Of a stretch of 64,000 nt of DNA, positions 22,808 to 40,401 are shown piece after piece; the first letter of the stretch is position 1, and the number at the start of each line of letters is the position of its first letter. The notes beneath the pieces were generated by a model, which searched no databases, was not told the DNA's origin, and saw only the letters and a list, made by a program, of their open reading frames with translations. Source of the DNA: a virus (Duplodnaviria; Caudoviricetes). The position numbers were made by a program, and so were the translations under genes. The DNA lies in IMG/VR virus record IMGVR_UViG_3300037423_000611, positions 1 through 64,000 of that record. One strand, written 5' to 3'.

Positions 22808-22890
22808 CCTCCACATATATAAAAAGAGATGGGATCAAGAAGTGGAGGCCTCTCTTTACCACAGATGATCAGTCCGTGATTTCCCATCTA
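22808..22890 (-). ncRNA. Structured leader RNA element A (3-way junction plus pseudoknot)
   Basis: Outer stem AGATGGGA/TCCCATCT; hairpin ATCACGGA-CTGATCA-TCTGTGGT; loop CCTCCAC complementary to GTGGAGG past the U-tract; TATAAT at 22900-22895. Confidence 0.65.
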
Positions 22891-22931
22891 TAAAATTATA
22901 CCCAATATCAATCTACAATTCTACCAATCTA

Positions 22932-23144
22932 CTAAAATTCATCTTCACCTATTACATTAATGTTCTCAGACCTATAATCACATACTGTCATTCCCTTATC
23001 TTCAATCAACTTCTCAATATGTATATCCAAGCCTCTCGTCTTGCTATCAATCAGTTCTGATAAATCACTATTCACATTATGTTCGATATCAAAACTCAGT
23101 ACCATCTTAACATCCATAAATACTGTCGATTTTGCTAATTCCAT
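22932..23144 (-). CDS. Small acidic hypothetical protein (70 aa)
   Basis: ATG 23144 after SD GGGAGGT, downstream of a strong sigA promoter. Confidence 0.7.
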   Translation of the reverse strand: MELAKSTVFMDVKMVLSFDIEHNVNSDLSELIDSKTRGLDIHIEKLIEDKGMTVCDYRSENINVIGEDEF

Positions 23145-23185
23145 CGTTAAAACCTCCCTTGGAATAGTATTTCCTTCATGAGTTA

Positions 23186-23214
23186 ATAGTAACATCATGT
23201 GCAAGCACCGTCAA
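23186..23214 (-). promoter_or_regulatory. SigA-type promoter overlapped by GTGCTTG repeats
   Basis: TTGACG-17 nt-TACTAT with TGn extension. Confidence 0.75.
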
Positions 23215-23322
23215 GCACTTTATTTCAACTGATTGCACTTTTCAAATTTGTTAATATTTGATACAATAAAATTAATTAAAGTGCTTGCAACTTCTAGAGA
23301 GTACCTTAACCTTGGAGGTATT

Positions 23323-23508
23323 ATGGAAAAGAAAATGTTAAAAACGAGAACAAGATTTAGTAATTCGTTACGTAATGACTTACATGAAGAACTCCATAAA
23401 TTGTCTTCTGTAAGTGATATACCAGTGTCTAAACTTCTGGATAGAGCAGTGGAAATGCTATTAACTGATTTTGAATATCTGCCAAAGAAATCCCCTGACA
23501 AAGAGTAG
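23323..23508 (+). CDS. Ribbon-helix-helix DNA-binding protein
   Basis: ATG 23323 after GGAGG; RTRFSNSL (ribbon)...LHEELHKLS...VSKLLDRAVEMLL. Confidence 0.8.
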   Translation: MEKKMLKTRTRFSNSLRNDLHEELHKLSSVSDIPVSKLLDRAVEMLLTDFEYLPKKSPDKE

Positions 23509-23526
23509 GGGATTTTACATAAATAA

Positions 23527-23586
23527 AAATACTCCACCTAAGACAATAAGCAGGAAAACCTGCTCAGTTCTATTAGGGGAGTATTT
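23527..23586. terminator. Probable bidirectional terminator between RHH and recombinase genes
   Basis: AAATACTCC/GGAGTATTT and CCTAA/TTAGG arms with internal GCAGG-AAAA-CCTGC hairpin. Confidence 0.6.
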
Positions 23587-24622
23587 AACCATTATCTTGT
23601 TGTTTCTTATTCTTCTCTTCTGCCATTTTACGCTTCATTTCTAATATTTTGTCTCTTGTTTCAGTTTTAGACTTTGGCTTGATGTAACTGGCTCTTGTTG
23701 TTTCTACTGACTTATGGTTAGCCATATCTGCTGCAAGTGCCAAATCTCCAGTCTTTTCATAAATTTCGTTAAGTGAGGTTTTACGAATACAGTGGCAGTG
23801 AAAATCTTCCAATCCTAATATGCGACCAATTTTTCTTACACGATCTTGGATTGTGCCATATGTCATTTGCTTGTACTCTCCATGATACTTTGTAATAAAT
23901 AAAGCATCGATTTCAAGATTATCCATTTCGGACTTTCTAATTTCCAACCATTCTTCAATTAAACTTTTTGTATTTTCCATAAAAGTAACTTCAACTCTAT
24001 ACCCACGTTTTTCACGGATCTCATTAAACATCATACTGTCCAAGTCCATTGAGGATAAAGTTAATTTAGATATTGCCCCAACCCTATTGGCACTTTCTAA
24101 CATAAGTGACCATATTATATTATCTTGGATGTCATACTTTTTTTCATCTAACAAACCTTCATTTATACGTTGAATTTCTTGATCGTTAAGATAATAGTGG
24201 TTAATGATTTTTTCGTCATTGGCACCTTTCATACGATCTAATTTCTTATCAAATGGATGGTGAGGAATCAATCTTCGTTTCATGCTCCATAGATAGAAAC
24301 TAGATACGGTACTAATTTTTGTATTGATAACCTTTTTATTATTCTTTAATATTTCTTGACAAAAATATATGTAACTCTCCATAATATCTACGGCATTATC
24401 CATGAACTCTTCACTATAAAAATTGATGTTATTCCATTCTTCGGCAATGAAAACCATGAAATGATTCATATAGTTTTGATATACTTTATAAGTGGTATCT
24501 TTTACATCGCGGTTCTTCATTATTGAACTTGTGAGGTATTTCTCATATATTTTTTTATTTTCATCTGAAATTAATGCCAATCGGTCAGGTGTAAAATATT
24601 TTATTTTTGTTACTTTAGCCAT
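23585..24622 (-). CDS. Tyrosine recombinase embedded in the tail module
   Basis: R (SANRVGA), K, HCIR, NH, Y (RASY) catalytic set; position as in SPbeta-like phages. Confidence 0.85.
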   Translation of the reverse strand: MAKVTKIKYFTPDRLALISDENKKIYEKYLTSSIMKNRDVKDTTYKVYQNYMNHFMVFIAEEWNNINFYSEEFMDNAVDIMESYIYFCQEILKNNKKVINTKISTVSSFYLWSMKRRLIPHHPFDKKLDRMKGANDEKIINHYYLNDQEIQRINEGLLDEKKYDIQDNIIWSLMLESANRVGAISKLTLSSMDLDSMMFNEIREKRGYRVEVTFMENTKSLIEEWLEIRKSEMDNLEIDALFITKYHGEYKQMTYGTIQDRVRKIGRILGLEDFHCHCIRKTSLNEIYEKTGDLALAADMANHKSVETTRASYIKPKSKTETRDKILEMKRKMAEEKNKKQQDNG

Positions 24623-24646
24623 TCTTTCACCTCCTTATATCACACA

Positions 24647-25111
24647 TTATTTAATTTCATAACCCTTACTTTTCATTGCCTCTTTCAACGCCTCTACATG
24701 TTTACCACTTTGCTCTAAAGCGTCTCTCGCAGGTTCTACAAAGTGTCTAGGTTTTTCGTAACCATATCCCCATCTATCTTGAATTGAATAAGGATTTTTA
24801 CCTTCAATAATCGAAGCCACATAAACATCATCACCATGTCCATCTGTGCCTTCTCGTGTACTATAAATGGAAACGCCATTATCTACTGGTTCTGCTTCAA
24901 AGTTAGCAGGGTCAGTTAAACCACCATGCTCCATATGTCTCGTATATAGAGAACTAGGTGAAGGAGTGTAAGGTGTATAGACATTCTGTTCAATACTAGG
25001 AATTAGTTCATCCACTACAACTTTTTTAATTTTAGGGTCTTGTTGTAATGATTTTTCAGCATCCTTGAGAGCATATTTAAGCAATTCTTCTATAGAATTA
25101 AAATTAGCCAT
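24647..25111 (-). CDS. Tail completion protein (HK97 gp10-like)
   Basis: YSPxxYxR-like segment and C-terminal PRHFVEPA motif. Confidence 0.55.
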   Translation of the reverse strand: MANFNSIEELLKYALKDAEKSLQQDPKIKKVVVDELIPSIEQNVYTPYTPSPSSLYTRHMEHGGLTDPANFEAEPVDNGVSIYSTREGTDGHGDDVYVASIIEGKNPYSIQDRWGYGYEKPRHFVEPARDALEQSGKHVEALKEAMKSKGYEIK

Positions 25112-25610
25112 CTATATCATCTACATCATTATTTTCATTTTCATCAACCATTCCACCGACCTGCGCTTTGAACAGCAACTCACCAATCATCTCTTGTGCC
25201 TGTGGTAAGTTTTTACTCATTCTCTCTACAGCAGCATTGAGTTTCTGTAGTTCATTCGCATCATATGAATTCCATAATTCCTCAAATATATCTAGGTTTA
25301 TAAGGTTATGTACAGTTGCTACTAAGACCTCATGCCCACATTCGCCATAGGGTATATTTGAAAAATATTTCAAAGTCAATCCATACATCACATATGTTAA
25401 ATAGATCATCGTATCAGACGCATCCATTTTGCTTCCGTTAGTTTTGAGTTCGTTGATAATGGATAAATAGTCGATAAGTAACTTTTGTAATTGTAATGGT
25501 TGAAAATGTTCATTAATAATAAACTCAAAACCGCCAATTTCAACTTTACGTTTAGCGTTTAGTTTAGATGCTTCTTTACTCAAATTGCTTAGAGTAGGTT
25601 TTTTAGCCAT
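25104..25610 (-). CDS. Putative tail assembly chaperone
   Basis: Position downstream of major tail gene; helical acidic protein. Confidence 0.4.
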   Translation of the reverse strand: MAKKPTLSNLSKEASKLNAKRKVEIGGFEFIINEHFQPLQLQKLLIDYLSIINELKTNGSKMDASDTMIYLTYVMYGLTLKYFSNIPYGECGHEVLVATVHNLINLDIFEELWNSYDANELQKLNAAVERMSKNLPQAQEMIGELLFKAQVGGMVDENENNDVDDIDG

Positions 25611-25756
25611 AATAAATACCTCCTTGTGGTATGGGGTAGAGTGGGTATAGATAAAAGAAAAAGAGCCTACTGGTGAGTAGACTCTGTTTGGGTGTTATAA
25701 AATTATTTTAGTTATATATTATTTTATATTTACACTTGCGCATTGTGTAAATATAA

Positions 25757-27070
25757 TTATGAAGCATATTGTAAATACTCTTCTTTAACAGAAATATTAT
25801 TTTCCATTAATATTTTAGTTATAAATTTAATATCATGCCAAGGATCTTCACTGCTGATACGTAACATTGTATAGCCATGTTCTTTTACAAGTTTATCTTT
25901 TAGTTTATCGTTCTGCTGTGTTATAAGAAAACGTTCTTTTCCACCAAAATCCTTTACTGGTTCTCTATGTTGTCTTCCATCAAATTCAACTACTAAATTT
26001 AATTCGTCATAAAAGCCATCGCAAAATAATAATGAATTGAATACTCCTCTTAACCAATCCCATTTTTTCTGAGGTTCGTAATCTACCCCTGTAATCCTTT
26101 TAATTAAATCCAATACAATTTTTTCAGCCTTGTTACTTGTTGAATCAATTTTGTAACCATAAAACTTGCACAGTTCATACCATGATTTCTTATATTTTCC
26201 TCTATAACCACTTTCAGTAATATTTGATAACTGATTAAATAACTTTTTTGTCGGATATTGTCCATATTCCCTTTTACAATACTCAAATACCCTTATGAAT
26301 TCATTCTTATAATCTTCATCACTGTAAGTTGCAGACATACCACCTGTCAATTTTCCAGCTTCTTGTTTTGCTTTCTTGCCTCTTAGTTTATATTCTTTGT
26401 ATTCATCATCGGTAACAATTGCTTTAACAATTTTCTCATATTTTTTATTATTTAATCCAAAATGCGATTCACTAAAATATGCAGTGAAGGATATTTTACT
26501 ATATCTCATAAATTCACTATAAATAGGCACACCACCAATTAAGTCCTTAATTTCATAAAAATTATCAACTAACTCTTGCTCAGTGTAACGAAGTTTTCTT
26601 ATGTCGCAACTATCTCTAATACCATCTCTTCCTATTTCTCTGGTAATATTATCAGTAATATAAGGATGAGTTTTTTCGAACCTTTTTACATTCTGAGAAT
26701 TATTTTCATCTTTGTATTTTAAAAATTCATTGATTACATAAGAATGTAGTTGGTCATATTTACCATATTCTTTTACAATATCAGTCCAAGATATATTAAA
26801 ATAATTTGTATACGATTGCGCTTTAATCAAAGAAACTTCATTAAATCCTTTTGGAGTAATCGCTTGTGGAGTTTTTATAATACAAATAAGAAAATTATTT
26901 TCGAGTTCTTCTTCATTATATTTATTTTTAAATGTTTTCTTATGATGTTTATGTAAAGTTTCTTTCCTTACAATTTTTCTACAATACGAACAATACCTTG
27001 TTGCAATATCTACATCAAGCATTTCTATATTACATCTTTCACAGTTCTTACTTTTAATTTTCTTTGCCAT
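25757..27070 (-). CDS. Vsr/EDxHD-like endonuclease with homing-endonuclease-associated repeats
   Basis: N-terminal CxxC...CxxC; repeated YTEQEL/YSDEDY...P....F helical units; WDWLRG...CDGF...VVEFDGRQH. Confidence 0.8.
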   Translation of the reverse strand: MAKKIKSKNCERCNIEMLDVDIATRYCSYCRKIVRKETLHKHHKKTFKNKYNEEELENNFLICIIKTPQAITPKGFNEVSLIKAQSYTNYFNISWTDIVKEYGKYDQLHSYVINEFLKYKDENNSQNVKRFEKTHPYITDNITREIGRDGIRDSCDIRKLRYTEQELVDNFYEIKDLIGGVPIYSEFMRYSKISFTAYFSESHFGLNNKKYEKIVKAIVTDDEYKEYKLRGKKAKQEAGKLTGGMSATYSDEDYKNEFIRVFEYCKREYGQYPTKKLFNQLSNITESGYRGKYKKSWYELCKFYGYKIDSTSNKAEKIVLDLIKRITGVDYEPQKKWDWLRGVFNSLLFCDGFYDELNLVVEFDGRQHREPVKDFGGKERFLITQQNDKLKDKLVKEHGYTMLRISSEDPWHDIKFITKILMENNISVKEEYLQYAS

Positions 27071-27079
27071 TTTTATCAC

Positions 27080-27178
27080 TCCTCTGAATGATTCCTCTTC
27101 TACATAAAAAAATAGGAGAAACAGGTTAGAGGATGCCTGCTTTCAATCGAATTGATCAGATTCAATCTATCTCCTATT
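27080..27178 (-). ncRNA. Structured leader RNA element B (3-way junction plus pseudoknot)
   Basis: Outer stem AATAGGAGA/TCTCCTATT; hairpin GATTGAAT-CTGATCA-ATTCGATT; hairpin GCAGG-CATCCTCTAA-CCTGT with loop complementary to AGAGGA at 27098-27093 and to the SD at 27085-27080; TG-G-TATTAT at 27190-27182. Confidence 0.7.
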
Positions 27179-27230
27179 CAAATAATACCACCTTTATTTA
27201 ATTTAGTAAATGATTATTTTACGTTTGTAA

Positions 27231-27998
27231 CTAAGTTAAGAACACTACATCATAGTAAACGTAGTCAGAACCTTGAGTTACAGCATACATATCTAATTCC
27301 ATATCCAATTTTGTAGCGTTCGTGCTCGAAAGCGCAAAGTTAAAATTAGGTTTGAATTTAGCATTGTAAATTGTAAATGCGCAAGCCTTGTCCGTACCAG
27401 TAACCTGATCTCTTGCAATACCTTCTCCGACAAGTTTCATAGGTTTAACAAACTTATTAGCTTTCATGGAGAATTTAGTGGCAGTATTAGGAGTTGCATA
27501 AGTATACCAAACTACAATCTGCTTACCATTATCTGCTGTATCTACAGTGATAGTTGTACCGCTAATTGAATACTGTCCTGCTGTTGGTGCAGATGCAGTT
27601 ACAGTTAATGGAGTGCCATTATCACGAGTGCCATCTAGATAGAATACAGAAGTAGTTGTTCCTGCCACTGGAGCAGAAGATAAAGTTGCCGTTCCACTAG
27701 CAACAGTTAACACTTCACGTTTTAAAACGTTCTGTGCTCCTGTTGCAACCGTATCTCCCATCAAAGATGCCATTAAGTTAATATCAACCAGTGGTAAAGA
27801 AAGTTTCATGCTAGAAACCTTTGAGTGGTCGAATGAAAGAAGTCTGTAATTCCCCTGACCTCCGGTTAAATCAATTCTTGAACCTTGGTTGTCTATCTCC
27901 GTAGTTTCCGCGTAATCGATATAAAAAAGCGGATCATTTGTTGAAAAATCTAAGCACTGTAGGTTTAATACTTCCTTTATCCCATATTGCATGGACAT
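27231..27998 (-). CDS. Major tail tube protein
   Basis: QYGIKEV start, GGQGNYRLLSFDH motif, position in tail operon. Confidence 0.75.
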   Translation of the reverse strand: MSMQYGIKEVLNLQCLDFSTNDPLFYIDYAETTEIDNQGSRIDLTGGQGNYRLLSFDHSKVSSMKLSLPLVDINLMASLMGDTVATGAQNVLKREVLTVASGTATLSSAPVAGTTTSVFYLDGTRDNGTPLTVTASAPTAGQYSISGTTITVDTADNGKQIVVWYTYATPNTATKFSMKANKFVKPMKLVGEGIARDQVTGTDKACAFTIYNAKFKPNFNFALSSTNATKLDMELDMYAVTQGSDYVYYDVVFLT

Positions 27999-28021
27999 AA
28001 TGTAATTCCTCCTTATATAAT

Positions 28022-28753
28022 TTAAGTGTTTATTTTAGACGCTAGATGATTTTTTAGTTCAGATGAATTAGGGTCAGATGAATGTGGTAATAAATATATC
28101 TGAGTTTCATAATTCTCCTTCATCATCAAGCGAATATAAATCGTATATAATTGATACACTGTTAAATCCCAAACGTTGAACATGTTCAAATTTCCACTAT
28201 AGGTGGCGACAATGCTAATAATGTCTGATAAGTTCAAACCTTCTTCAGCGTTTTTTTCTTTTACTTTTTGCCTGAAATGTTTTAGTTTCTCAATTAATTT
28301 TGCTGCCTTTTCGTCATGAGGATTAAATTGTTCTTCCTCTTCTTTATTGTCTTTAATAAAGTTCTGTTGTTTAACTAATCGAACAATCTCTTCATAAATC
28401 TCTGGAGTTATAATCCGTTGATGATTTATATCTCCTAAATAAAAAAATCCGCCTTGATGTAAGTGGATTTCTTCTTTAAACAATATATGTAATGCATGGA
28501 TAATCACATTTCGAAATGTCTCATCGCTTAAACTGCAAACCATTAGCGTTTCAAATTTGCTTAATTTTTTACCTTCAATTTTTAAAGTTTCTTGATTGAA
28601 TATGATTGAAGAAAGATATTGATTATATTTTAGTTCACCAATTTTAGATATTTCATCCAACTTTAGTGGGTGAATTTTACCAAATCGATAAACTTCAATT
28701 GGTAGACCACGGAGCAACTTCAAATCCATATCATTGTTTCCCATGACTATCAC
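28022..28753 (-). CDS. Conserved phage tail-region hypothetical protein
   Basis: IHPLKLDEI...NVWDLTVYQLY motifs; synteny. Confidence 0.6.
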   Translation of the reverse strand: MIVMGNNDMDLKLLRGLPIEVYRFGKIHPLKLDEISKIGELKYNQYLSSIIFNQETLKIEGKKLSKFETLMVCSLSDETFRNVIIHALHILFKEEIHLHQGGFFYLGDINHQRIITPEIYEEIVRLVKQQNFIKDNKEEEEQFNPHDEKAAKLIEKLKHFRQKVKEKNAEEGLNLSDIISIVATYSGNLNMFNVWDLTVYQLYTIYIRLMMKENYETQIYLLPHSSDPNSSELKNHLASKINT

Positions 28754-29227
28754 CTAATTCAATTCATTCATTTTATAAGCAATATAAATCCCAAAATACT
28801 TATCATTCACGTACATTTCATCCATTTTGTAAAATTGAGGTTTTCCAATTCCAATCCCTCTTTGTTGGTTCATCAACTTATCAATTTCAGACAAAATATA
28901 ATCTGACCTCAACCAACCGTAATCTGTTTGCATCAAGTTAATATGTACCAATACATTAATATAGATATATCCTGATTTAAATGAGGTGTTAACTAAGTCA
29001 TAGTTTCTAAATGACAAAGTGATATAATTGTTTGCATTATCATCTGCCACCGGAACAAATTTATAAGGATAAATTTTGTTGTAGATTAACACACTTGTAT
29101 CTTCAATATCGGGTTGATCTAAAAAATTAGATTGACTATAATTTAATGCCTTACAAATATTTTGAGAACCTAGCAATCGCATCATTATTGTTACTTTGTC
29201 ATTAGATAAATCCATTAATCGACTCAT
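28754..29227 (-). CDS. Putative tail terminator/neck protein
   Basis: IYPY..VP and ILSEID.LMN...GIG motifs; synteny. Confidence 0.5.
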   Translation of the reverse strand: MSRLMDLSNDKVTIMMRLLGSQNICKALNYSQSNFLDQPDIEDTSVLIYNKIYPYKFVPVADDNANNYITLSFRNYDLVNTSFKSGYIYINVLVHINLMQTDYGWLRSDYILSEIDKLMNQQRGIGIGKPQFYKMDEMYVNDKYFGIYIAYKMNELN

Positions 29228-29237
29228 TTTACACCTC

Positions 29238-30470
29238 CTAAATCAGACTCTTCATCTGTACTCTAAACCAACCAATGATACTGTTGTCACTCTGCAACAT
29301 AGTTCTTACCTGAACATATCCATTCGTAGCATTATTATTTACAACTGTACAACTCTTACCATCTTGACTTGATATTTTTGCTAATGTAGTAGTGGACACT
29401 TTATCGTCAGCAAATATATCAAATGTGACCAATTGGTCATTTACAACCACACCGTTATTGGTAACAGAACTAGTATACGTACTAGTTTGATTCTGTTTAA
29501 TTACACTAGACCCACTTATACTCACACTGTAATTATCCGTCACTACAGCAACCACATTTACACCTATTGTAGCGTAAATGGATGTATCGCTTGTCATCTC
29601 AACAGTAATTGTAGCACTACCACTCGTCACAGTAGTAACAAGTCCATTGCTATCTACGGTAGATATTGCAGTATCACTACTTGTATAAGTTAAACTTGGA
29701 CTACTCACTATGTTCCCATTGTCTGTAACAGTTATACTAAGTTGTAATGTGGAATTTGCGTTCATGGATACAGATGAACCATTAGTTATGGAGATTGCAT
29801 AGTTATGTGTAATATAATCACACACTCTTAAATCTACATTGTCAGTGGCCTCGTTTACTTGATCCTCTTCTAATGTTAGGTTAATCAGACCTGTGTTCAA
29901 ATTGCTAATGGAATTGACTTTCCAACAACGATTACCATCAAATATAAAACGCTGACCCTTTTTAATTTTAGATGTGTCTGCGTTATTCTGTATGGCAATA
30001 TATCTCCGTTCACTACCTAAAATGAGATAGTTATCTTGGTTGATCCCAAGGCTATTGTTATATGTTGTTGTAATGTAGAATGGGGCTTCTTTGATGGAAC
30101 CTGTGGAATCTTGCCATTTGATGGAAGAGACACACAACTCAATACTCCCTCGTCTATATATGCCACCCATATCATCTACAATCAAAGTCAACCAATAATC
30201 ATTTCCCCATTTAACCAAATCTCCAACAGATAAGGATGTAGAAAGTGCATCATCTGGTTTAGTGGTCAATCGTTTAAGAGATTTAGATTCTGAGTCATCA
30301 ACTATCCACACATCTGAGGGTGTGGGAGAAGAGTTGATGGTTACTTGGTAATAGGAAGGGGAATCATAAAATCCTGAAAGTATGCTTTGTTTCAGTGATT
30401 CCTTTTGAGAACCTAATATGCTTCCACCTCTTGCATCCAACAATTTTCTATAAGTGTCAAGATAACTCAT
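29238..30470 (-). CDS. Head-closure/adaptor protein with Ig-like (Big_2-type) domain
   Basis: YTSSD..ISTVDSNGLVT..TSGSATITV Ig motif; position after connector. Confidence 0.65.
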   Translation of the reverse strand: MSYLDTYRKLLDARGGSILGSQKESLKQSILSGFYDSPSYYQVTINSSPTPSDVWIVDDSESKSLKRLTTKPDDALSTSLSVGDLVKWGNDYWLTLIVDDMGGIYRRGSIELCVSSIKWQDSTGSIKEAPFYITTTYNNSLGINQDNYLILGSERRYIAIQNNADTSKIKKGQRFIFDGNRCWKVNSISNLNTGLINLTLEEDQVNEATDNVDLRVCDYITHNYAISITNGSSVSMNANSTLQLSITVTDNGNIVSSPSLTYTSSDTAISTVDSNGLVTTVTSGSATITVEMTSDTSIYATIGVNVVAVVTDNYSVSISGSSVIKQNQTSTYTSSVTNNGVVVNDQLVTFDIFADDKVSTTTLAKISSQDGKSCTVVNNNATNGYVQVRTMLQSDNSIIGWFRVQMKSLI

Positions 30471-30481
30471 ATGACACCACC

Positions 30482-30886
30482 TCAGTTTGTATAATGGTAA
30501 AGTGTCAATAAATCATTTACGTCACTTTCCAATACTTCTTTTAGATTAGTTATTTCTTTCAAAAGATTAGCCGGACTATATGTGGTGTAATCTTTACTCC
30601 CTAAAGTATTGTATAGATGTTTCTCACTCATTAACTTGGGCATCAGCCACTCTAGCCCCATAAAACTAGCCAATATGTTTTGTTCTTGAAGGCTTAACGT
30701 AATGTTAAATGTCCTATTTAAATCATCGCGATTATTTAAATCTTGAACACAATTATAAAATCTTGAAATTGCGACTTTGAGATATTTATCTGTAATTTCA
30801 TTTACCTCATCATCAAATAGTTTTGCCAATTCAAATGAAGTGATTTTATTTAAGAAAAAATCCCTTATCTCATCATACGAGGTCAT
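30482..30886 (-). CDS. Head-tail connector protein
   Basis: MTSYDEI..FL, KDY..YSPANLL motif; synteny. Confidence 0.65.
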   Translation of the reverse strand: MTSYDEIRDFFLNKITSFELAKLFDDEVNEITDKYLKVAISRFYNCVQDLNNRDDLNRTFNITLSLQEQNILASFMGLEWLMPKLMSEKHLYNTLGSKDYTTYSPANLLKEITNLKEVLESDVNDLLTLYHYTN

Positions 30887-30912
30887 TTCAACACCTCTCT
30901 TTATACAATAAA

Positions 30913-31448: not shown

Positions 31449-32414
31449 TTAAGAAATAGTAATTAGACCAAGGTTAGGAACTTGAAGTACGTTTACTCCA
31501 ACCTTTTGAAGTGTCTTCTTAGTTACAGAACCATCATCAAAAGATTGTTGTTCAAGCATTTCGGCTCCGCCTTCGAACGTTACTTTTACAGGCTTGTCAG
31601 CCCCAACTGGCATAACGTAGATGTAGTTGTTGCTTAAAGTCCAAGTAGTGTTCGTTTCATCAGTGAATGTATTAGGAAGTTGAACTAGTGCGCGACCTTC
31701 CCATACACCAATAAATCCATCGCGATTGAAAGCGTCTTTCATGGTATCAGACATAGCAGATTTAAAGTTAGAATCACTAGTAATGTTAGATAGTGCAATA
31801 GCAGTACCAACAATTACAGGGCGACCATATGCAGAAACAGTGTTTGCTACGTTACGAACTTGAGCAAGAGAAAACGCACCGGAATACTTATTGGCAGCAG
31901 GTGCAGAACCCATTGCTGTAACGAATGTATTTTGGATAGTCTTTAATACTTCTTCATTGATTGCATCTGCAATTTCATTGATCATATCAGTGAAGGATTC
32001 AGCGCGACCTGCAAGAATATCATCCCACTCAGCATAAACGCTTGCGCCTAATGCTTTAGGTTGAGCAGTAATTTTACCCTTGTAGATTTTTTGTCTACGG
32101 ATTTCAGAACCAAGAGCAACGTATTCAACTTTTAATTTTCCGTTGCGAACGTTGTATTCTTTCTTTTCTCCATGTCCAACATAAGTTACATCAGCAATAA
32201 TATCCAATGCTCCATCAACTTTAACTTTAAGAACTTCATTTACGTTTTCTTTGATGATTGCGTTAATTTCAGTTTTGTTACGATCATAATCCTTGATTAA
32301 AATGCTAAACAACTCGACTAATTCAGCCTTACGTTGTTCCGCAGTTTGTCCTTCTACAGAAGAACGTCCGTATCTTACGTCCATGCAAAGTTCTAAAACT
32401 TTATTCTTATCCAT
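31449..32414 (-). CDS. Major capsid protein
   Basis: 321 aa after protease/scaffold and decoration genes; HK97-like features; highly expressed-type codon usage. Confidence 0.85.
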   Translation of the reverse strand: MDKNKVLELCMDVRYGRSSVEGQTAEQRKAELVELFSILIKDYDRNKTEINAIIKENVNEVLKVKVDGALDIIADVTYVGHGEKKEYNVRNGKLKVEYVALGSEIRRQKIYKGKITAQPKALGASVYAEWDDILAGRAESFTDMINEIADAINEEVLKTIQNTFVTAMGSAPAANKYSGAFSLAQVRNVANTVSAYGRPVIVGTAIALSNITSDSNFKSAMSDTMKDAFNRDGFIGVWEGRALVQLPNTFTDETNTTWTLSNNYIYVMPVGADKPVKVTFEGGAEMLEQQSFDDGSVTKKTLQKVGVNVLQVPNLGLITIS

Positions 32415-32451
32415 CTATGTATTCCTCCTATTATATAATTGATAATTTTAA

Positions 32452-32922
32452 TTATGCTACTTCAACTTGTAATACAATTGCATCTTTACCATTCAATGCA
32501 GTCTTTTCGATTACACGGAATTTCTGTGCAGGTGGTGTAGTACCAGGGAAAGTGGAAGCAACTGTGAATTTACCTCCAACTTTAGCATAAGCATAATCTC
32601 CAACTACAACAGCAGCAAAATTAGCACGATCTCCACTAAAGTCAATTTGAGTAGTTGTGAAAATGTCATCAACTTCCAATGTGTATACTCTTGCTTCCAT
32701 ACCACCTACTTCATTGCGGAAATCAGACTCATCTAGAGAGTCATAAAGATTTGCAACTGAAGCTACTAAACGCTGTTTTTTAGTTGCATCAGTGGTAGCA
32801 GCAATTTTATTTGTTGCGTAGTTTACCTCTGCCAAAACACCATTTTCAATCGCTGTATCAAAACCATAACCTAAAGCATGTCCTTTTACTAAATCCAATC
32901 TACAAATGCCGTATGCACCCAT
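32452..32922 (-). CDS. Capsid decoration/minor head protein
   Basis: Between scaffold and capsid; IENG...and DIFTT motifs. Confidence 0.65.
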   Translation of the reverse strand: MGAYGICRLDLVKGHALGYGFDTAIENGVLAEVNYATNKIAATTDATKKQRLVASVANLYDSLDESDFRNEVGGMEARVYTLEVDDIFTTTQIDFSGDRANFAAVVVGDYAYAKVGGKFTVASTFPGTTPPAQKFRVIEKTALNGKDAIVLQVEVA

Positions 32923-32968
32923 CGTATAATTCCTCCTTATAATTTAAAAAAATTTATTTTATATTTAA

Positions 32969-34459
32969 TTAACCCTGTAAACCGTATTTTTGAAGCAAGG
33001 TTTGAGGGATTAAATCTTCTTGTTTAGAAGCTGTTACTACTACTTGTTCAGTTTTAGAGTTTGTCTCAATAACTTTTTCTTTAGCAATTTCTTCAACTAC
33101 AATACTGTTGAGTTCGATTTCATTGCATTCTTCAAGAGCGTTAACTACTCTTTCAGACTTCATAGTGTCTTCTGGGAGTAATTTTGAAAACTTCTCAACT
33201 AGAGCAGTCTTCTTTGCTTCTTTTTCAGCAACCTCAACCTGTTCTTTGTATTTAGATAGGTCTTCGATTTGGGAGTTTAATTCAGAAACTTGTCCCTCAA
33301 GAGATTTCTTAGACTCTTCTTGGGATACGATAGTTCCGTTTAATTCAGCAACCTTAGAGTTAAGTTCATCAACTTTTACATTTGCAGCATCAAGTTGAGA
33401 TTGAAGTTCTTTAATTTGTTCTTCAGTCATTCCTTGTTCCTCCTTCAATTTGTTATTTAATTCAGTTACTTGCTGCTCTTTATCAACAAGCAACTGATTA
33501 ATATTTGTCCCCACTGGTTGATATGTAATTTCTACTTGTTGCCAAGAATCCTTTGCGTCAAGTGAAACAACGTTGTTTGTAATCGAATAATTAGCCTTAA
33601 ACATCACTGCCGAATTATCCCAGTCTTCTAGAATAACATATGTCTGATACAATTCTCTAATCCAGTAAGTGTATGTTCTTTCATCTGTCTGAGGATCAAT
33701 GGGATTGACGAGATTATACAATTGATCTCTAATATCCCCATATGATAATTCATTAGTTTCAACCTTACCATGATATTTGACTTCATATCCTTTATTAAAT
33801 AAAGCCTTTTCAGGTTTTGACATAGGCTCATCTCCTTTCTTATTTGATTTCAAATCTTGTTGCACAGCACTCGCTACCTCTCTTTGGAAGATATTTGTTA
33901 CTCCAGCATCAGAATCAGCAGGTGTAACAGAACTACCTAATAGACAATTTGCAAGGTAACTATAATTAGTAGGGTATCTATATTGCTTTGTTGGATTATC
34001 TCCAAACTGATATATTTCAACCTCAACAGAACTTGTGCTTTGATTATCATTAAATAGACGTTCTATACAACTCATAATTTGAGGGTATTTATAACTCCAA
34101 ACAACTGCTTTCGCATACAACGCCTTTTTAACTGTTTCATCATTTATTTTATAATCATCTATCCAAACATCAGTAATAGTTCCAATAGCGAGAGTCCTAA
34201 GTTCTACTATATGACCATTTTCGTCAAATACAGGTTCGTGATCACCTAAATCATCTTGAAGTGGATAATAGGAGCAAACAACAGGCTTATCAATAAGAGT
34301 ATTCATAAATTGCTTTGTGTGTTCTTCTCTAAAGTCTAATCCATTTCCATTTACATGGTCTAATTTATGAACCAACATAGTGATTTCTCTTGTATTAGAA
34401 TCTTTATTTGAAATTTCGATGATGGTGGAGTTAAGTGTGAGTTTTTCTGTCACTTTCAC
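32969..34459 (-). CDS. Prohead protease fused to coiled-coil scaffold
   Basis: GTG 34459 after AGGAGG; NGNG..F, DLGDHE, SSVEVEI, NCLLG protease motifs; E/K-rich C-terminus. Confidence 0.8.
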   Translation of the reverse strand: MKVTEKLTLNSTIIEISNKDSNTREITMLVHKLDHVNGNGLDFREEHTKQFMNTLIDKPVVCSYYPLQDDLGDHEPVFDENGHIVELRTLAIGTITDVWIDDYKINDETVKKALYAKAVVWSYKYPQIMSCIERLFNDNQSTSSVEVEIYQFGDNPTKQYRYPTNYSYLANCLLGSSVTPADSDAGVTNIFQREVASAVQQDLKSNKKGDEPMSKPEKALFNKGYEVKYHGKVETNELSYGDIRDQLYNLVNPIDPQTDERTYTYWIRELYQTYVILEDWDNSAVMFKANYSITNNVVSLDAKDSWQQVEITYQPVGTNINQLLVDKEQQVTELNNKLKEEQGMTEEQIKELQSQLDAANVKVDELNSKVAELNGTIVSQEESKKSLEGQVSELNSQIEDLSKYKEQVEVAEKEAKKTALVEKFSKLLPEDTMKSERVVNALEECNEIELNSIVVEEIAKEKVIETNSKTEQVVVTASKQEDLIPQTLLQKYGLQG

Positions 34460-34589
34460 ATTCACCTCCTTTCGAACATGAATCACATTCACATTTTTTA
34501 CTTGTGCCAAATTCTAACCATGATAATTCTTTTGTGGATTGACTGTTAAGTTCAGATGTAGAGAAATGCTGCCATTGTTTTTGAGACAT
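34431..34589 (-). CDS. Putative 52-aa Cys-containing peptide
   Basis: ATG 34589 after AAAGGTGGTG SD just past the portal stop; CECDSC motif. Confidence 0.4.
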   Translation of the reverse strand: MSQKQWQHFSTSELNSQSTKELSWLEFGTSKKCECDSCSKGGECESDRKTHT

Positions 34590-34602
34590 AGTATCACCAC
34601 CT

Positions 34603-36123
34603 TTAATCTGAAGGGGATGGATTATCATTGGACCCATTGCCCTGACTCTTTGCCGTATTATCATTGGTTGGATTTGAATTAGACGGTCTTCCACCTGAAT
34701 TATCCCCTGATTGCGTGTATGAGGTAATATGAATAGGAAGAATTTCATCCAATTTAAGAACTTCATTCTCATATTTAACTTGGGCAAGCCAGTGATCGAA
34801 GTCATATCCGGCAGACTCAACATAATGTTTGAGACTTCCACGACCTTTAAGATATAAAGATTCGGCTTGTTTAAAACCTGTCTCTTTGTCGAGAATAGTT
34901 GCACGACTAAATTTAATTTTAGGATTAAAGTTGCCACTTGGCACAAGGAAACTCATATATTCATTTAGAGCCTCTTCTACATCTTTAACTAAATAGAAAA
35001 TAATAGAATAAATTTTCTCTACGTTTATGGTGCTGGAACCAAAACTTTGTCCATTACCACCACCTGAGTTAAGGCTCTGACTATAACCCAACTTTTTGTA
35101 AATATCACTATCAATTCGTTCCCATATTTCTTTTGGAAAAGTAGTCATATTTATTTCCAACTCCTGTATTTCTACAAAAGAAGGAACGGTTAAAGGCGCA
35201 GTGGAAGCATTGTCCGTAGAAGCACTATCATATTTCTTCTGTAATAGGCTTTTAAGATTATTGTGATATTGTTGCACAAGTTCTTTTGGAACAGGCAAGC
35301 TTGTTTTCCCATCTTGTCCTATCAAATTACCAATCTTTTGCACGATAATTTGATTAGTTATACGATCAGCTAATGCCTTCTCAGTTTTCTCAAGTAAATC
35401 TTTATGTATGATCGAACTTAAGGCAGGAATGCAATAAGGAATGCCAAATGGTTCATTCCTTGAACCTCTTAATTTAAACACTTGTGTTTTTTTGATATCC
35501 AATGGAACATATCTTTTAGATGAGTCCTTTTTGTAGGCATTGTAGATACCTATAGTTACTTCATCAGGAGCAGCATTAATTTGTTGCTCTAATCCATCCT
35601 TTAATTTAAATGAATCAAAGTAACTTAAATCAAACAAAACCTGCCACTTTCCATCAACCATGTATTCAATTCTTATCTGCTCATTATCCAAAAATTGGAT
35701 ATATTTATTTTTACGATTATACCAAACGCATGTTCCTTCTTGAATTACAGTAAATATGGTGTCGCGTGTGAGCCTGTCAACTTTAATGGAATTGAGGAAA
35801 GTATCTATAGTTTTCTTTTTTGAATTAAAACTTTTTTGCTGCATATTTTCCCAAAGAATAGAATAACTAAGAATTGGGAGAACGTTAAAAAGATCGTAAA
35901 CGTCAGTTACGATTCCTTCTTTGTTGTAGTAATATTTACTTAATTTAATTAATTGTTTCCTGTAGCGTGGAGGATTCTTTAGCCATGTCAGGAGGTCTTT
36001 GATGCTTACATCAACTAATCCTGCACCACTTGAAAAAGACTGAATCCATTCAGCAAACGAAGCCAATTCATAAAAAGATTGGTCTATTAAAGATTTATTT
36101 TCTATTGTAATCACCCCTTTCAA
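34603..36123 (-). CDS. Portal protein
   Basis: 506 aa after terminase; RxSxYxY, EPFGIP, YKKLG motifs. Confidence 0.8.
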   Translation of the reverse strand: MKGVITIENKSLIDQSFYELASFAEWIQSFSSGAGLVDVSIKDLLTWLKNPPRYRKQLIKLSKYYYNKEGIVTDVYDLFNVLPILSYSILWENMQQKSFNSKKKTIDTFLNSIKVDRLTRDTIFTVIQEGTCVWYNRKNKYIQFLDNEQIRIEYMVDGKWQVLFDLSYFDSFKLKDGLEQQINAAPDEVTIGIYNAYKKDSSKRYVPLDIKKTQVFKLRGSRNEPFGIPYCIPALSSIIHKDLLEKTEKALADRITNQIIVQKIGNLIGQDGKTSLPVPKELVQQYHNNLKSLLQKKYDSASTDNASTAPLTVPSFVEIQELEINMTTFPKEIWERIDSDIYKKLGYSQSLNSGGGNGQSFGSSTINVEKIYSIIFYLVKDVEEALNEYMSFLVPSGNFNPKIKFSRATILDKETGFKQAESLYLKGRGSLKHYVESAGYDFDHWLAQVKYENEVLKLDEILPIHITSYTQSGDNSGGRPSNSNPTNDNTAKSQGNGSNDNPSPSD

Positions 36124-36126
36124 TGG

Positions 36127-37908
36127 TTAGTTGTAGAAGAAGAAATTGTAATCATCGTGATTATCTTCTTTAAACAATGACCTTTCCAATTCAGATGCGA
36201 TAAAGTTTCCGTATGTTACAGAACTATAACGGTCTTTGCGCTTGGATCTTGGCTCCTTGAGTTTAATTAAACCACTATCTGTTCTTTCTCCTTCAAGGTT
36301 AATCATTTCGTTAATAAGAAGAGTGGTTTGAATAAATGGTGCTTCAAAAGTTGTTTGTATGTCCAAAGGCAAATCTTTAAATTTACTAAGTTTCTTTAAA
36401 AACTCTTTTCCTTCAAGTTCACTTGTAAGTAATTTTACTTTACCTCTTTTTAATCCATCTCGAAGAGTTATAGCGCATTCACTATTGAATTGAGCATTAC
36501 CCTTGATGCTATAAATAACTTTTTTGGCTTGAGGATATGCGCATCTATCGCTCATTTTTTCGTCATTTATACAATTCCAAGGTTCGTATTCTTTATTTCT
36601 GTCTTTGTCATAAAGTGGTTGAACTAATTGGTCATAAATTCCAAGACCAATACTCTGTGTATCTAGAACAAGATAATCACAATCAAAGTCTTCATATAAC
36701 TGTCTAATTCTTGTGGCCTGCGTAACAGTATGACCGCCCACCATGCTCTCCATGTAAACAATATGGCGGTCAAAACCCTTAGAAGTTGGAATTAATCTAA
36801 AAATAGTGTACACACTGGCATCGTTCTCTTTTCCTGCCATACCTGCAATATCACAACTTATGAGTCTAATTTCGCCCATTCTCTTTGTTTCATATGTGAA
36901 ATTTTTATCTTTGACTATTGAATAATAATCTTTAGGGTATAAAGGCCTTGGCAACTTTCTATTTTTCTCAAGTTCCTCAAATTTAAAGAATGCTTTTTCT
37001 GATTCACCAAAGAATAGACATTCCATCTCCATATACCATGCGACCTCATCGAAATCATCTTCTGACATTTCATCTTTTACTTGTTCTTCATCAAGTAAAT
37101 TCTCTTTAATTGCCAATTGGTACGGCAAACCACAAACAAAATATTGTTTACCTTCTGACATTGAATTAAAGAAACTCTTTAACTTTTCCCATGACCAATG
37201 GTGTTGGTACCACGCGGAACTTAAATATATTTCCTTGTTTCTTTCTTTCAAGTGTGCATATTCGGGTTTATTTAAATATTTTGGCTGTCTCGGAGCAGAA
37301 AGGAATTTACGCAAAACAGTGTTTATAATACTTAAATCAATCATTCGAAACTCGTCAGCGATAATACAGTTTGCTCTTTTACTTCGCGCATTCTGATTCG
37401 AAGCGACTACTTTTATCCAACTACCATTGTGAAATTCTACCTTTGGGTCATTTGATGAAGTACTTAAATCACTAATCTCTCTATGTAAGTTAGGCGAATT
37501 TTTCCTAAGATCATCTATCTTTTCAATTACTTCTCTTGCTTGACCTTTAGTACCACTGGCTATGACAATTTTCGTTTCAGGCCAAAGTATTGCCCGAACG
37601 CAACAGTAGATCGCAGTAATCCAAGTTTTTCCTTGACCTCTAGAAGCAAGATACATAAAATAGTGATTGTAATTCATCATATACATCAAAATAACTTGAA
37701 ATAATTTTAGATGTATACCTAAATATTCTCTTACAAATCTATGTGGATTTGCTCTATAGAAACTTGCCCAAATACCAATACCATTCATTAATTTATCTGA
37801 CTTTGTTAATTTGTCGTTGTTTTTGTTAAAATTACGACCTTTATTAAATATATTGATACCTTTGTGTTCTTTGTTTCTTTGAACTTGGAAGTTTTGAATT
37901 CCAGCCAT
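36127..37908 (-). CDS. terL: Terminase large subunit
   Basis: Walker A ASRGQGKT, Walker B IIADEF, YLSSA, nuclease ISCDIA and KDRYSS; start revised to ATG 37908. Confidence 0.92.
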
Positions 37909-37909
37909 T

Positions 37910-38845
37910 CTATACCACACCCTTATCCGAATCTTCCTCAAACTCAGGTGCTTCCACTTTATATTTATTAATTTCTTCATCGTACTCTTTTGAATGTTCA
38001 TTTTTAATTCCTAGCATCTTACTCAAATGACCAAGGAACCAAACATTGACATACTTACGTACTCCATCTACGTCTTTCCATGCTTCATCCGGTTCTGGAA
38101 TAGGCTTTTCATTCTCATACTTTTTAATAAGAGTGCCAAATGTAGCCTGTTCAACAGCATTTGCACCTGTTTCTTGGGCAGGTTTAATATTAGCACTTCC
38201 AAGCAAATCTTGTAGGGTTTTTAATTCTTTATCAACCGAATCGCCTTTTTCACGTCTCTTTTTAATAGTCAAACGCTGTTGTGCTGCTTCTTGAAATAAT
38301 AATTCCATAGCATAAGAGTCACATTCGTAAGAGTTCAACAATCTTTGATATTCATTGGTTAAAAAATAATACTCATCTTGGTTCAGACCTCTTCCCCAAA
38401 ATTCTTGTAACTCATACAACTCTTCTGTGGTGAATAATGGATTATTATTTTTTATATCTAGTTCAATATTATCTTTGTCTACTGTTTTATAAACAATTTG
38501 TTGATTTGATGCATTGAAATCACTATCAGCAAATGTTTTTCCTCTATACTGAGGAAAAGAACTCAATTGAGGTATGTATTTAGTCCAATCACTTCCTCTG
38601 CTTATCCACAAATCCATGATTAGAGGTTTATTTAAAATAGCCAAGACCATTTTTACACGATCTAAATATCCAACACTGTCTTTTTCACCAATGTAATCAT
38701 TTAAACATTTTTTACAAATTACAGATTTTTGAGTTGAAAACAACTCATTCTCATTCATATAATAATTAGAATCAGCTAATTGTCTTTTACACTTTAAACA
38801 TTCCAATTTTTCAGATTGGGGTTTTTGAACTTTTTTTCGTGCCAT
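37910..38845 (-). CDS. Zn-finger protein, probable terminase small subunit
   Basis: CLKC...CKKC; [37 protein letters not shown]; immediately upstream of terL. Confidence 0.55.
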
Positions 38846-38886
38846 TGTCTCACCACCTTTTTTGCAAAACAAAACAAAAAGAGGTG

Positions 38887-40167
38887 TTATAAGCACACCT
38901 CTTGCTGGTTATCTAATAATTCTTTTCTAAATTGATAATAGCTTTTTAAATCTCCGTAATCATAACCAATTTGATATTGGCTACACTTTACATCTCCTGA
39001 ATCAATATCAAATTCTATCCATGAATGACCAGACTGAAAATATTTTTTCGCATAACTAATCATTTCAATTATTTTATTGTCAGATGGTAAACAATCTTTT
39101 CTTGATGTTATTGCAATTTCCTTCCACCCTCTTCGTCTCAAAGCATAGCGTCTTTCTCTTTCATATACTTCAAATTCTTCTTTTGTCTTTTGACCAAAAT
39201 GTATTGCTAACCAATGTCCCGATCCATTGTATTCAATATAAAATTTATCTTCTAGGAATGCCACATCCAATGAAGATGTAAATACTGGATAATTTATCTT
39301 TCCACTTAGTAAATTAGCTATATGTCGCTGTTGCATTGAAACAGGTGCAGTTTGGTTATTATACATTGTTTGCCTTCTTTTAGCATCAGCACATCTTTGA
39401 CATCTAGCTCCATTAAGTAAATTGTATAGAATAGTGTAATCTTCTTTTCCACACTCGCACCTATATCTCATTGCCGTGGAACTATTTATATATTCTTCTT
39501 CAGTAATTAATAACTCGCAGTTTTCATCTTTAAATAGTTCAACAACTTCTTCAAATGGTACTCTATTCTTTTCAGAAATCATTCGAAGTTTACATACGTT
39601 ACATCTTTGACCTGCTTGAAACTTATCAAATGAAGTATTCCCTTCATTTCCACAATCACATATATAATTTAACTTTTCTTTGGCGCTATTGTATGTCTTA
39701 GAAAGTAATATACAGCCACTAGATTCAAATATATTTTTAACATAATCATATGTTAACTTTAAGTTTTCACTAATCTTTTTTAGACCGCAGTTATAACACA
39801 ATCGGCCAGAAGACAGTGCCATTAAACTAATTTTATTTTTCTCTCCGCAAACACATATGAAGTCCAACAATTCTGTGCTGTTTTTGTAAGTTGTGGATAG
39901 AAGAGCGCATCCAACCTCTTCAAATCTACGCTTAACTTCATCATAAGTTAATCTTCTAATGTTCCCACACTTTACTTTCTTGCATTCTTCACACCTTTTA
40001 CCTCGTTTAAAATTATCAAAGTTTGTTGTAGATTTATTCCCACAAACACAAATATAATCAAGTATATCTTTCTGTTTTGTAAAAGAAGTGCTTAACAAAA
40101 AACATCCTTGTTCTAAAAAATAATTAAATATTTCTTCATAAGTCCAGCGCTTTCTTTTATTTTCCAC
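38887..40167 (-). CDS. Zn-ribbon-repeat Vsr/EDxHD-like endonuclease
   Basis: Four CxCG...G.(R/L)C..C repeats; LDVAF...IEYNGSGH. Confidence 0.8.
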   Translation of the reverse strand: MENKRKRWTYEEIFNYFLEQGCFLLSTSFTKQKDILDYICVCGNKSTTNFDNFKRGKRCEECKKVKCGNIRRLTYDEVKRRFEEVGCALLSTTYKNSTELLDFICVCGEKNKISLMALSSGRLCYNCGLKKISENLKLTYDYVKNIFESSGCILLSKTYNSAKEKLNYICDCGNEGNTSFDKFQAGQRCNVCKLRMISEKNRVPFEEVVELFKDENCELLITEEEYINSSTAMRYRCECGKEDYTILYNLLNGARCQRCADAKRRQTMYNNQTAPVSMQQRHIANLLSGKINYPVFTSSLDVAFLEDKFYIEYNGSGHWLAIHFGQKTKEEFEVYERERRYALRRRGWKEIAITSRKDCLPSDNKIIEMISYAKKYFQSGHSWIEFDIDSGDVKCSQYQIGYDYGDLKSYYQFRKELLDNQQEVCL

Positions 40168-40194
40168 ACCTCATCAATCCCCCTGTCAGATTGT

Positions 40195-40273
40195 TTCCTG
40201 ATATGTAAAAAGTAGAGGAGAGGGTTCAGGAATACCCTCAATCAAGGCTCGCGACTTCCTTGGTTTTCCCCTA
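40195..40273 (-). ncRNA. Structured leader RNA element C (3-way junction plus pseudoknot)
   Basis: Outer stem TAGGGGA/TCCTCTA; hairpin CAAGG-AAGTCGCGAG-CCTTG; hairpin GAGGGT-ATTCCTGA-ACCCTC with loop complementary to TCAGGAA at 40201-40195; TG-G-TAAATT upstream. Confidence 0.7.
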
Positions 40274-40401
40274 AGTAAAATTTACCACATAATTCATAAT
40301 ATGTATATATTTTTTTTAAAGATTACTAATAATTTTATATCTATAAAAAGAATCCTAACACAGTGTCCACCATTCAGGTAGACACTGAATAATACTCTTT
40401 T

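Follow-up and report, generated by a model that had tools for sequence, protein, structure and literature searches.

Three short stretches on the minus strand of an uncultured phage genome, E1, E2, and E3, each lie just ahead of a homing-endonuclease-like gene (HEG1, HEG2, and HEG3), which raises the question of what kind of RNA they encode and what it does for the gene behind it. The source is a 72.5-kb viral contig from IMG/VR (IMGVR_UViG_3300037423_000611), and the window analyzed here is its first 64 kb. A first-pass annotation had described the elements as a covarying structured-RNA family with its own promoter, perhaps part of an RNA-nuclease system. The family is real: its stems and loop-target pairings covary across phages. 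We lean toward reading each element as the 5' leader of a self-contained homing endonuclease gene (HEG) cassette, a cis-acting attenuator and translation brake that belongs to a phage branch of the int-alpA RNA class.

RNAfold predicts one shared three-way junction as the minimum free energy (MFE) fold of all three elements. Read along the minus strand, the order is a -10-like box, the 5' side of the closing stem (P1), hairpin 1, a 3-nt junction, hairpin 2, the 3' side of the closing stem (P1'), and a U tract. MAFFT alignments of the three elements were structurally inconsistent, and the first covariance model (R1) was therefore built from E2 alone; R3 denotes the final, phage-only model. The parts are as follows, with stems and loops taken from RNAfold and U tracts from the sequence.

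22889-22821, minus strand: E1 RNA core, MFE fold (R1, 31.6 bits; R3, 68 bits)
22889-22882 with 22834-22827, minus strand: E1 P1, 8 bp
22880-22858, minus strand: E1 hairpin 1, 8 bp, loop CUGAUCA at 22872-22866
22854-22837, minus strand: E1 hairpin 2, 6 bp, loop CCUCCA at 22848-22843
22826-22821, minus strand: E1 U tract, CUUUUU
27176-27105, minus strand: E2 RNA core, MFE fold (int-alpA, 27.8 bits over the full length; R3, 84.5 bits)
27176-27170 with 27119-27113, minus strand: E2 P1, 7 bp, extendable to 9
27167-27145, minus strand: E2 hairpin 1, 8 bp, loop CUGAUCA at 27159-27153
Between hairpins 1 and 2, minus strand: E2 junction J23, GAA
27141-27120, minus strand: E2 hairpin 2, 6 bp, loop CAUCCUCUAA at 27135-27126
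27112-27106, minus strand: E2 U tract, U7
40273-40206, minus strand: E3 RNA core, MFE fold (R1, 18.2 bits; R3, 41.2 bits)
40273-40267 with 40219-40213, minus strand: E3 P1, 7 bp
40262-40243, minus strand: E3 hairpin 1, 5 bp, 10-nt loop AAGUCGCGAG at 40257-40248
40239-40220, minus strand: E3 hairpin 2, 6 bp, loop AUUCCUGA at 40233-40226
40212-40207, minus strand: E3 U tract, CUUUUU

Most of the annotated layout is borne out by these folds. The closing stem has the 7 to 9 bp described, a -10 box lies 4 to 6 nt before P1 in 3/3 elements, and P1 runs directly into a U tract in all three window copies, so that the stem would double as a terminator. Hairpin 1 had been given a loop of one base plus a 6-nt palindrome; this holds for E1 and E2 (CUGAUCA) and fails for E3, where a 5-bp stem closes a 10-nt loop.

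Three promoter regions, read from the sequence, accompany the elements.

22895..22902, minus strand: E1 promoter, -10 region GGTATAAT, hexamer TATAAT at 22900-22895
27182..27189, minus strand: E2 promoter, extended -10 TGgTATTAT, hexamer at 27187-27182
40279..40287, minus strand: E3 promoter, extended -10 TGgTAAATT, hexamer at 40284-40279

GGTA is kept in the same register in all three, and extended -10 boxes are found in E2, E3, and the relative L020. A perfect TTGACA-17-TATAAT, ending 3 to 4 nt before P1, occurs in relatives L041, L042, L065, and L051, as well as in most copies from the DNA-pattern scan described below. Because several relatives carry this consensus promoter at the matching position, the weaker boxes of E1 to E3 are credible, and because the promoters end so close to P1, the transcription start can be placed at the foot of that stem. 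A general consensus scan for promoters and terminators was uninformative in this AT-rich DNA (120 promoter-like sites versus 98 expected) and blind to branched terminators.

The elements recognize one another and further copies elsewhere. On both strands of the window, the top matches of R1 were E1 (E value, 2e-5) and E3 (E value, 0.05). In the whole 72.5-kb contig, E1, E2, and E3 were the best of nine candidates for a structural descriptor, and R3 returned exactly these three, one copy per gene and without tandem repeats. Later models retrieved 17 further copies in other phage contigs, 16 of which lie 30 to 70 nt upstream of a homing-endonuclease-like gene, with the remaining one preceding an integrase. 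A three-sequence model brought up two of these: the fourth copy stands before a homing endonuclease gene of an unrelated 33.6-kb contig, and the fifth heads a tyrosine recombinase gene in L020, a relative of the window phage. The 33.6-kb contig holds three copies, each ahead of a homing-endonuclease-like gene, and every model match in two phage contigs precedes such a gene. Among 46 loci gathered via the N-terminal domain of the HEG1 type, seven have the RNA, whose end always falls 35 to 45 nt before the gene. A DNA-pattern scan in which the neighboring gene was left unconstrained added eight copies (seven before intact nuclease-like open reading frames [ORFs], one before a truncated ORF). Searching viral contigs with the HEG3 protein yielded one locus, later the source of three more RNA copies, and two other searches of viral contigs with single HEG or neighbor proteins yielded nothing. 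R1 had no match in five related phage records, nor did R3 in the 151 Bacilli genomes searched, where filters were strict and few candidates were scored.

Covariation carries the case for a conserved fold. Almost no stem sequence is common to E1, E2, E3, and the other subtypes. Across 14 model-aligned sequences, 93.5% of stem cells are paired, versus 62% after shuffling and about 47% with partners slid, and double changes occur at 20 of the 21 stem pairs; these figures lean high, the alignments having been fitted to the model and many members being drawn from related phages in a few metagenome series. The count was also made on five sequences. The stems contain G-U pairs, which shows selection on the RNA of the minus strand.

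The loop of hairpin 2 (loop 3) finds its complement just downstream, as the annotation had claimed for a segment past the U tract. The sites and the associated upstream ORF (uORF) of E1 are listed here.

22808..22814, minus strand: E1 site 1, GUGGAGG, loop-3 complement of 7 nt, duplex -13.8 kcal/mol
ATG 22795-22793, TAA 22780-22778, minus strand: E1 five-codon uORF, from reading the sequence
27093..27098, minus strand: E2 site 1, AGAGGA, complement of loop 3 UCCUCU, -9.0 kcal/mol
27079..27085, minus strand: E2 site 2, AGAGGAG, the HEG2 Shine-Dalgarno with the same AGAGGA complement, -9.5 kcal/mol
40195..40201, minus strand: E3 site 1, UCAGGAA, loop-3 complement of 7 nt, -9.7 kcal/mol
40178..40185, minus strand: E3 site 2, CAGGGGGA, HEG3 Shine-Dalgarno region, 6 pairs including two G-U, -6.6 kcal/mol

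The proximal complements are exact in E1, E2, and E3 (7, 6, and 7 nt, respectively) and begin 11 to 14 nt after P1'; family-wide, the target lies 2 to 19 nt past P1'. Complementarity between loop and site averages 6.8 nt for cognate versus 4.3 nt for noncognate partners; none of 100000 permutations of the partners gives a sum as high as that observed. One pair switches from UCCCUUUC/GAAAGGGA to UUCCUUUC/GAAAGGAA, a compensatory change, and a second complement to loop 3 is present at the Shine-Dalgarno region in nearly all members. Duplex energies in E1 to E3 range from -6.6 to -13.8 kcal/mol. In E1, site 1 lies 12 nt before the five-codon uORF, whose stop overlaps the HEG1 ATG (22778-22776) as UAAUG; the two reading frames may be translationally coupled, and the G-run at 22793-22789 provides a second, weaker loop-3 partner (-11.5 kcal/mol).

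The loop of hairpin 1 (loop 2) carries a 6-nt palindrome in 11 of 12 phage members, against a chance of 4 to 10% per loop. Six hexamers were seen (UGAUCA, UCGCGA, UCAUGA, UAAUUA, UUAUAA, and UUCGAA), and they differ among the three copies of contig G007 as well as between E3 and E1/E2. Two other explanations of this loop were rejected. A DNA operator or cleavage site does not fit with G-U stem pairs that exist on this strand only, nor with the same hexamer standing before unrelated enzymes; a hammerhead ribozyme (CUGAUCA plus GAAA) was dismissed because CUGAUCA is a hairpin loop here and not a stem I-II junction.

The genes behind the elements are the following.

21108..22778, minus strand: HEG1, homing-endonuclease-like, phrog_12131 at 1e-13
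25757..27070, minus strand: HEG2, homing-endonuclease-like, ATG 27070-27068, phrog_9084 and phrog_559
38887..40167, minus strand: HEG3, homing-endonuclease-like, GTG 40167-40165, phrog_559 at 3e-28

All three match homing-endonuclease PHROGs, yet they have no pairwise BLAST similarity to one another, so that one RNA layout does stand before three mutually dissimilar endonuclease genes. The N-terminal domain of HEG1 is common to HEGs of other phages, as seen in a family alignment. Synteny with relatives places the insertion point of HEG3 between a 114-amino-acid gene and the yonG-like and terminase genes. In relatives without HEG3, the upstream genes run straight to the yonG-like gene with a plain or differently structured terminator in between, which the model does not recognize as a member. 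Where a relative carries a nuclease at another position, the leader is of a different type; another relative, whose nuclease follows a homolog of the tail-protein gene upstream of E2, has no leader at all. Because relatives that lack the nuclease or carry it elsewhere are without the RNA, the RNA comes and goes with certain cassettes and does not follow genome position. The proposal that it travels with endonuclease genes thus stands (3/3 copies in the window contig and 3/3 in a second contig), although not every nuclease has it, and for some it is dispensable. Contigs from four soil or rhizosphere DNA runs contributed only short, low-depth pieces and no joint showing an HEG-less allele.

The structured terminators that precede the yonG-like gene in relatives resemble the RNA family in layout (L005 3513-3571; L003, about 3508-3560; L008 3491-3556; and L039, which is SPbeta, 8085-8140). 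In G002 and G004 this terminator folds into a three-way junction (z = -5.3), one loop of which is rich in C and U, and carries two AAGGG sites; in G001, G003, and SPbeta, a closing stem surrounds one hairpin (two in SPbeta) and is accompanied by a C/U-rich, anti-Shine-Dalgarno-like stretch; in the closest relative it is simply a long hairpin (z = -8). As members of the family these elements were rejected, with R3 giving only 10 to 12 bits on the right strand.

The annotation had been unable to name an Rfam family. At gathering thresholds, Rfam indeed has no match in the window; in sensitive mode, a subthreshold kinship appears. The best match of E2 is int-alpA (RF02996), a motif that reportedly stems from the 2017 survey of Weinberg et al. 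and that Rfam lists as a small RNA (sRNA). E2 scores 27.8 bits and the integrase-linked L020 copy 25.4 bits, below the cutoff of 35.8 bits, which no phage element reaches. Both alignments run end to end, that of E2 including the AGG after the terminator, and the Rfam consensus itself extends to 'aAgGG'. E1 and E3 have no int-alpA match at an E value of ≤10, nor do some other family copies. Genuine E. coli int-alpA copies score 64 and 70 bits with RF02996, and recognition is reciprocal: R3, built from phages only, scores the E. coli loci at 24.4 and 24.5 bits (E value, 1e-4), with the next match at 6.3 bits. A genome search with the RF02996 model gave no match even where cmscan gives 25 to 28 bits and was too insensitive a route. 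The E. coli copies also have the two-site loop-3 pairing, with a compensatory change of their own (ACCUUA/UAAGGU to GCCUUA/UAAGGC). A copy in a low-GC phage (L114 1775-1832) has a 3-bp hairpin 1, a GACG tetraloop, and UGAAAA and CUG junctions, as in E. coli int-alpA, precedes a gene for a treble-clef zinc-finger nuclease-like protein, and is thus an intermediate between the phage and E. coli branches. By these alignments, we regard the window elements as a probable divergent, long-armed, low-GC phage branch of the int-alpA class. The kinship brings no established function with it, as no functional study of int-alpA and no described HEG-leader RNA motif were found in the literature.

On the reading we lean toward, transcription from a sigma-A-type promoter would begin at the first base of P1 or no more than a few bases away, and the three-way junction would form from the first ~63 nt. 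In the window copies, P1 and the U tract would act as an intrinsic terminator, so that host RNA polymerase would mostly yield an RNA of ~65 to 70 nt, with occasional readthrough into the nuclease gene, that is, attenuation. In readthrough or longer late transcripts, the C/U-rich loop 3 would pair with one of two purine-rich sites, either the proximal one just past the U tract, which looks decoy-like, or the Shine-Dalgarno of the nuclease gene (in E1, that of the coupled five-codon uORF). Such pairing would keep translation low for a gene whose overexpression brings the phage harm or at best no benefit. Loop 2, being self-complementary, most likely serves for kissing between two copies of one leader. 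The efficiency of termination, the repression, the dimerization, and the choice between the two sites at any time are what we infer from sequence.

Several points weigh against this reading. The folding energies of single flanked sequences are no better than those of shuffles (z = -0.1 to -0.8), so that stability alone proves nothing and the support comes from covariation, the counts of which lean high as stated. Relatives L041, L051, and L020 have no U tract, and termination is thus not a defining feature of the family. The true Shine-Dalgarno pairing in E1 and E3 is weaker than that of the proximal site and requires G-U pairs. A single loop acting only in cis would leave one of its two sites free, and the purposes of the proximal site and of the self-complementary loop are left over. 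Finally, a YonO-type polymerase, which may or may not respond to hairpin terminators, may be the enzyme that transcribes the late operon (PMC5467207).

Those leftovers are what a product acting in trans would use. If the terminated RNA of ~65 to 70 nt were the main product, it could serve as a private, attenuation-derived autorepressor of each cassette, much like C4 or CI; we hold this to be possible, if doubtful. The same modest credence goes to its details: the short RNA would dock on the full-length leader through loop-2 kissing and use its unoccupied loop 3 to mask the Shine-Dalgarno, the proximal site being taken by loop 3 of the mRNA itself. A consensus-strength promoter followed at once by a terminator speaks for such an RNA, as does Rfam's classification of int-alpA as an sRNA. 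The two target sites for one loop also favor it, a kissing RNA acting in trans would account for both the proximal site and the self-complementary loop, and loop 2 does stay self-complementary while its sequence changes, among the G007 copies and between E3 and E1/E2. Against it, members lacking the U tract cannot make the short RNA, E1 and E2 share an identical palindrome so that the address is not private within the phage, and E. coli int-alpA carries a GACG tetraloop where the palindrome should be. Carried further, and marginally less probable still, the element may be a self-addressing riboregulator: the short RNA would find its own full-length leader through a loop-2 kiss resembling a retroviral dimerization initiation site (DIS), with its loop 3 on the Shine-Dalgarno and the cis loop on the decoy, so that nuclease output would fall as transcript dose rises. 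To our knowledge, no dose-sensing, dimerization-based translational control has been described in phages or bacteria; if true, this would be the first function for the orphan int-alpA class.

The remaining explanations fare worse against the same observations. A passive insulator, consisting of an intrinsic terminator and a base-paired, mRNA-stabilizing 5' end without regulatory pairing, would account for P1 and the U tract in the three window copies, for a 5' end paired from its first bases, and for the plain or other structured terminators at the matching pre-yonG-like position in relatives. We consider it improbable, as it leaves unexplained the covarying pairing of loop 3 with its site, the conserved palindromic loop 2, the junction bases shared with int-alpA, and the members without a U tract. 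Slightly less probable again is a riboswitch-like aptamer, in which the junction binds a small molecule or protein and the loop-3/site pairing is the expression platform. From E. coli to low-GC phages the junction keeps certain bases (UA, GAAA, sometimes CUG), and a long-range pseudoknot-type pairing is present, but the junctions vary in E1 (A/AAA) and E3 (AAAC/AUU), homing endonucleases and integrases suggest no obvious ligand logic, and no Rfam riboswitch matches. The annotation's headline idea, an RNA partner of the nuclease acting as guide, cofactor, or type III-like antitoxin, is very improbable. Its attraction is how closely the RNA is linked to endonuclease genes. One member of the class heads an integrase gene, however, and in E. 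coli the class stands before genes of unknown function next to an integrase. The linked nucleases are dissimilar, ordinary zinc-finger and PD-(D/E)XK-like homing endonucleases, no RuvC, IscB, TnpB, or ToxN family match was found in the proteins downstream of E1 to E3, and the variable loop matches the leader and ribosome-binding region of the gene itself. Type III toxin-antitoxin systems of the ToxI kind have tandem RNA repeats, whereas here one copy precedes each gene and the proteins match homing-endonuclease PHROGs, not ToxN. Nor do RNA-guided nucleases provide a model, with no Rfam match to HEARO (RF02033) or to the omega RNA of IscB/TnpB and an RNA of only ~65 nt.

If the cis-acting leader reading is right, phages of both Gram-positive and Gram-negative bacteria harbor selfish cassettes, for nucleases or integrases, that bring along a portable RNA brake. 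This would help explain how HEGs persist inside essential late operons without harm to the phage. The modular pair of loop and site might also be reusable as a small, programmable part for translational control.

The phage itself is SPbeta-like. With YonF of Bacillus phage SPbeta its large terminase shares 68% identity, several uncultured phages of ~130 to 150 kb have large terminases 75 to 86% identical to it, and megablast of 22 kb against named phages gave no match. The genes around E1 to E3, all on the minus strand, make up the module for packaging, head, and tail. HEG3 and HEG2 are each followed immediately by a plain intrinsic terminator (38879-38903 and 25662-25685, respectively, minus strand); inside a supposed single late operon, such terminators would be sensible if a YonO-type polymerase ignores hairpin terminators. 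Soil metagenomes contain high-depth contigs of other organisms that match the stretch at 25651-25689 as well. A tyrosine recombinase gene (Phage_integrase, 8e-21) is located at 23585-24622 on the minus strand, in the middle of the tail module. In L020, the recombinase at 5216-6055 lies among tail fiber genes and is the sole RNA-headed gene that is no nuclease; it could belong to a tail fiber inversion system. The virion protein gene upstream of E2 has a homolog in the closest relative (L019, about 1290-2329; G005 21290-22329) that aligns in two pieces, overlapping in the query and ~200 nt apart in the relative, which could reflect an intron, an insertion, or a frameshift.

A fourth nuclease gene, HEG4 (42236-43171, minus strand; phrog_559 at 1e-76), has a leader unlike E1 to E3. 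Its stretch CCUCCUUUC (43239-43231), an exact likeness of the 16S tail, matches, by 9 bp of complementarity, the Shine-Dalgarno of HEG4 itself, GAGAGGAGG (43187-43179), and between the two lies a terminator hairpin (43226-43200) followed by UCUUUUU. An extended -10, TGaTAGAAT (43211-43203), sits inside this hairpin; transcripts starting from it would be without the anti-Shine-Dalgarno, which is the design of T4 mobE and I-TevI. The hairpin recurs with compensatory changes in a relative (about L008 1666-1693), and the 13-nt direct repeat TGTCGTGATGATA is present twice in the leader.

Among described systems, the C4-icd-ant and P4 immunity regions offer the nearest regulatory parallel: there, loops of a small phage RNA pair just downstream in the same transcription unit, including with the ribosome-binding region. 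As in P1/P7 C4 (RF01695) and P4 CI, a loop of the present elements pairs with a nearby downstream target to restrain a potentially harmful gene, and of the roles listed in the first-pass annotation this is the closest. The parallel is one of design, not of family: E1 to E3 have no C4 or c4-a1b1 match at an E value of ≤10, in a search that returns C4 at 74 to 82 bits in an E. coli island. A terminator would set the 3' end here, no sign was seen of RNase P processing as in C4, and there is one targeting loop instead of two.

In T4, homing endonucleases are kept low or late by RNA structures over the ribosome-binding site together with promoter and terminator placement (PMC2988022). The leaders of I-TevI, I-TevII, I-TevIII, segB, and Aeh1 mobE hide the Shine-Dalgarno of the HEG, as we propose here, in local hairpins with a promoter inside, so that late transcripts escape (PMC2988022). 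E1 to E3 have no such local hairpin containing the ribosome-binding site, and the HEG4 leader (43239-43179) fits that design better. The window elements are built differently: a loop of a distinct junction stretches across a terminator to its site, the promoter precedes the entire fold, and there are two extras, a decoy-like second site and a loop complementary to itself. That last loop resembles the DIS of HIV-1, a purine-flanked 6-nt self-complementary loop that varies between lineages yet remains palindromic (AAG-UCGCGA-G in the phage); origin and context are unrelated, and dimerization of the phage leader would be predicted from its sequence only.

The closest structural likeness remains int-alpA, with its P1, short UA junction, P2, GAAA(A) junction, P3 with a ..CCU.. 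loop, P1', U tract, and AGG-containing site. The three-way junction with a closing stem that runs into a U tract is found in E1, E2, and E3, and the pairing of loop 3 with an AGG-type site after the U tract recurs in the window elements. The int-alpA junction bases recur in E2 (UA, GAA) and in part in E1 (A, AAA); those of E3 (AAAC, AUU) are different. The phage P2 is long (5 to 8 bp) with a 7- to 10-nt loop containing a 6-nt palindrome, in contrast to the GACG tetraloop of E. coli. The setting differs as well: phage copies have a strong promoter of their own and an HEG behind them, with HEG-like genes in 3/3 cases in the window instead of the integrase/alpA neighborhood and one relative preceding an integrase, whereas the E. 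coli copies lie just after the integrase gene in satellite-like islands, before genes of unknown function. To a catalogued motif, the phage copies thus add a promoter and start, a terminator, covarying loop-target sites, and a self-complementary second loop.

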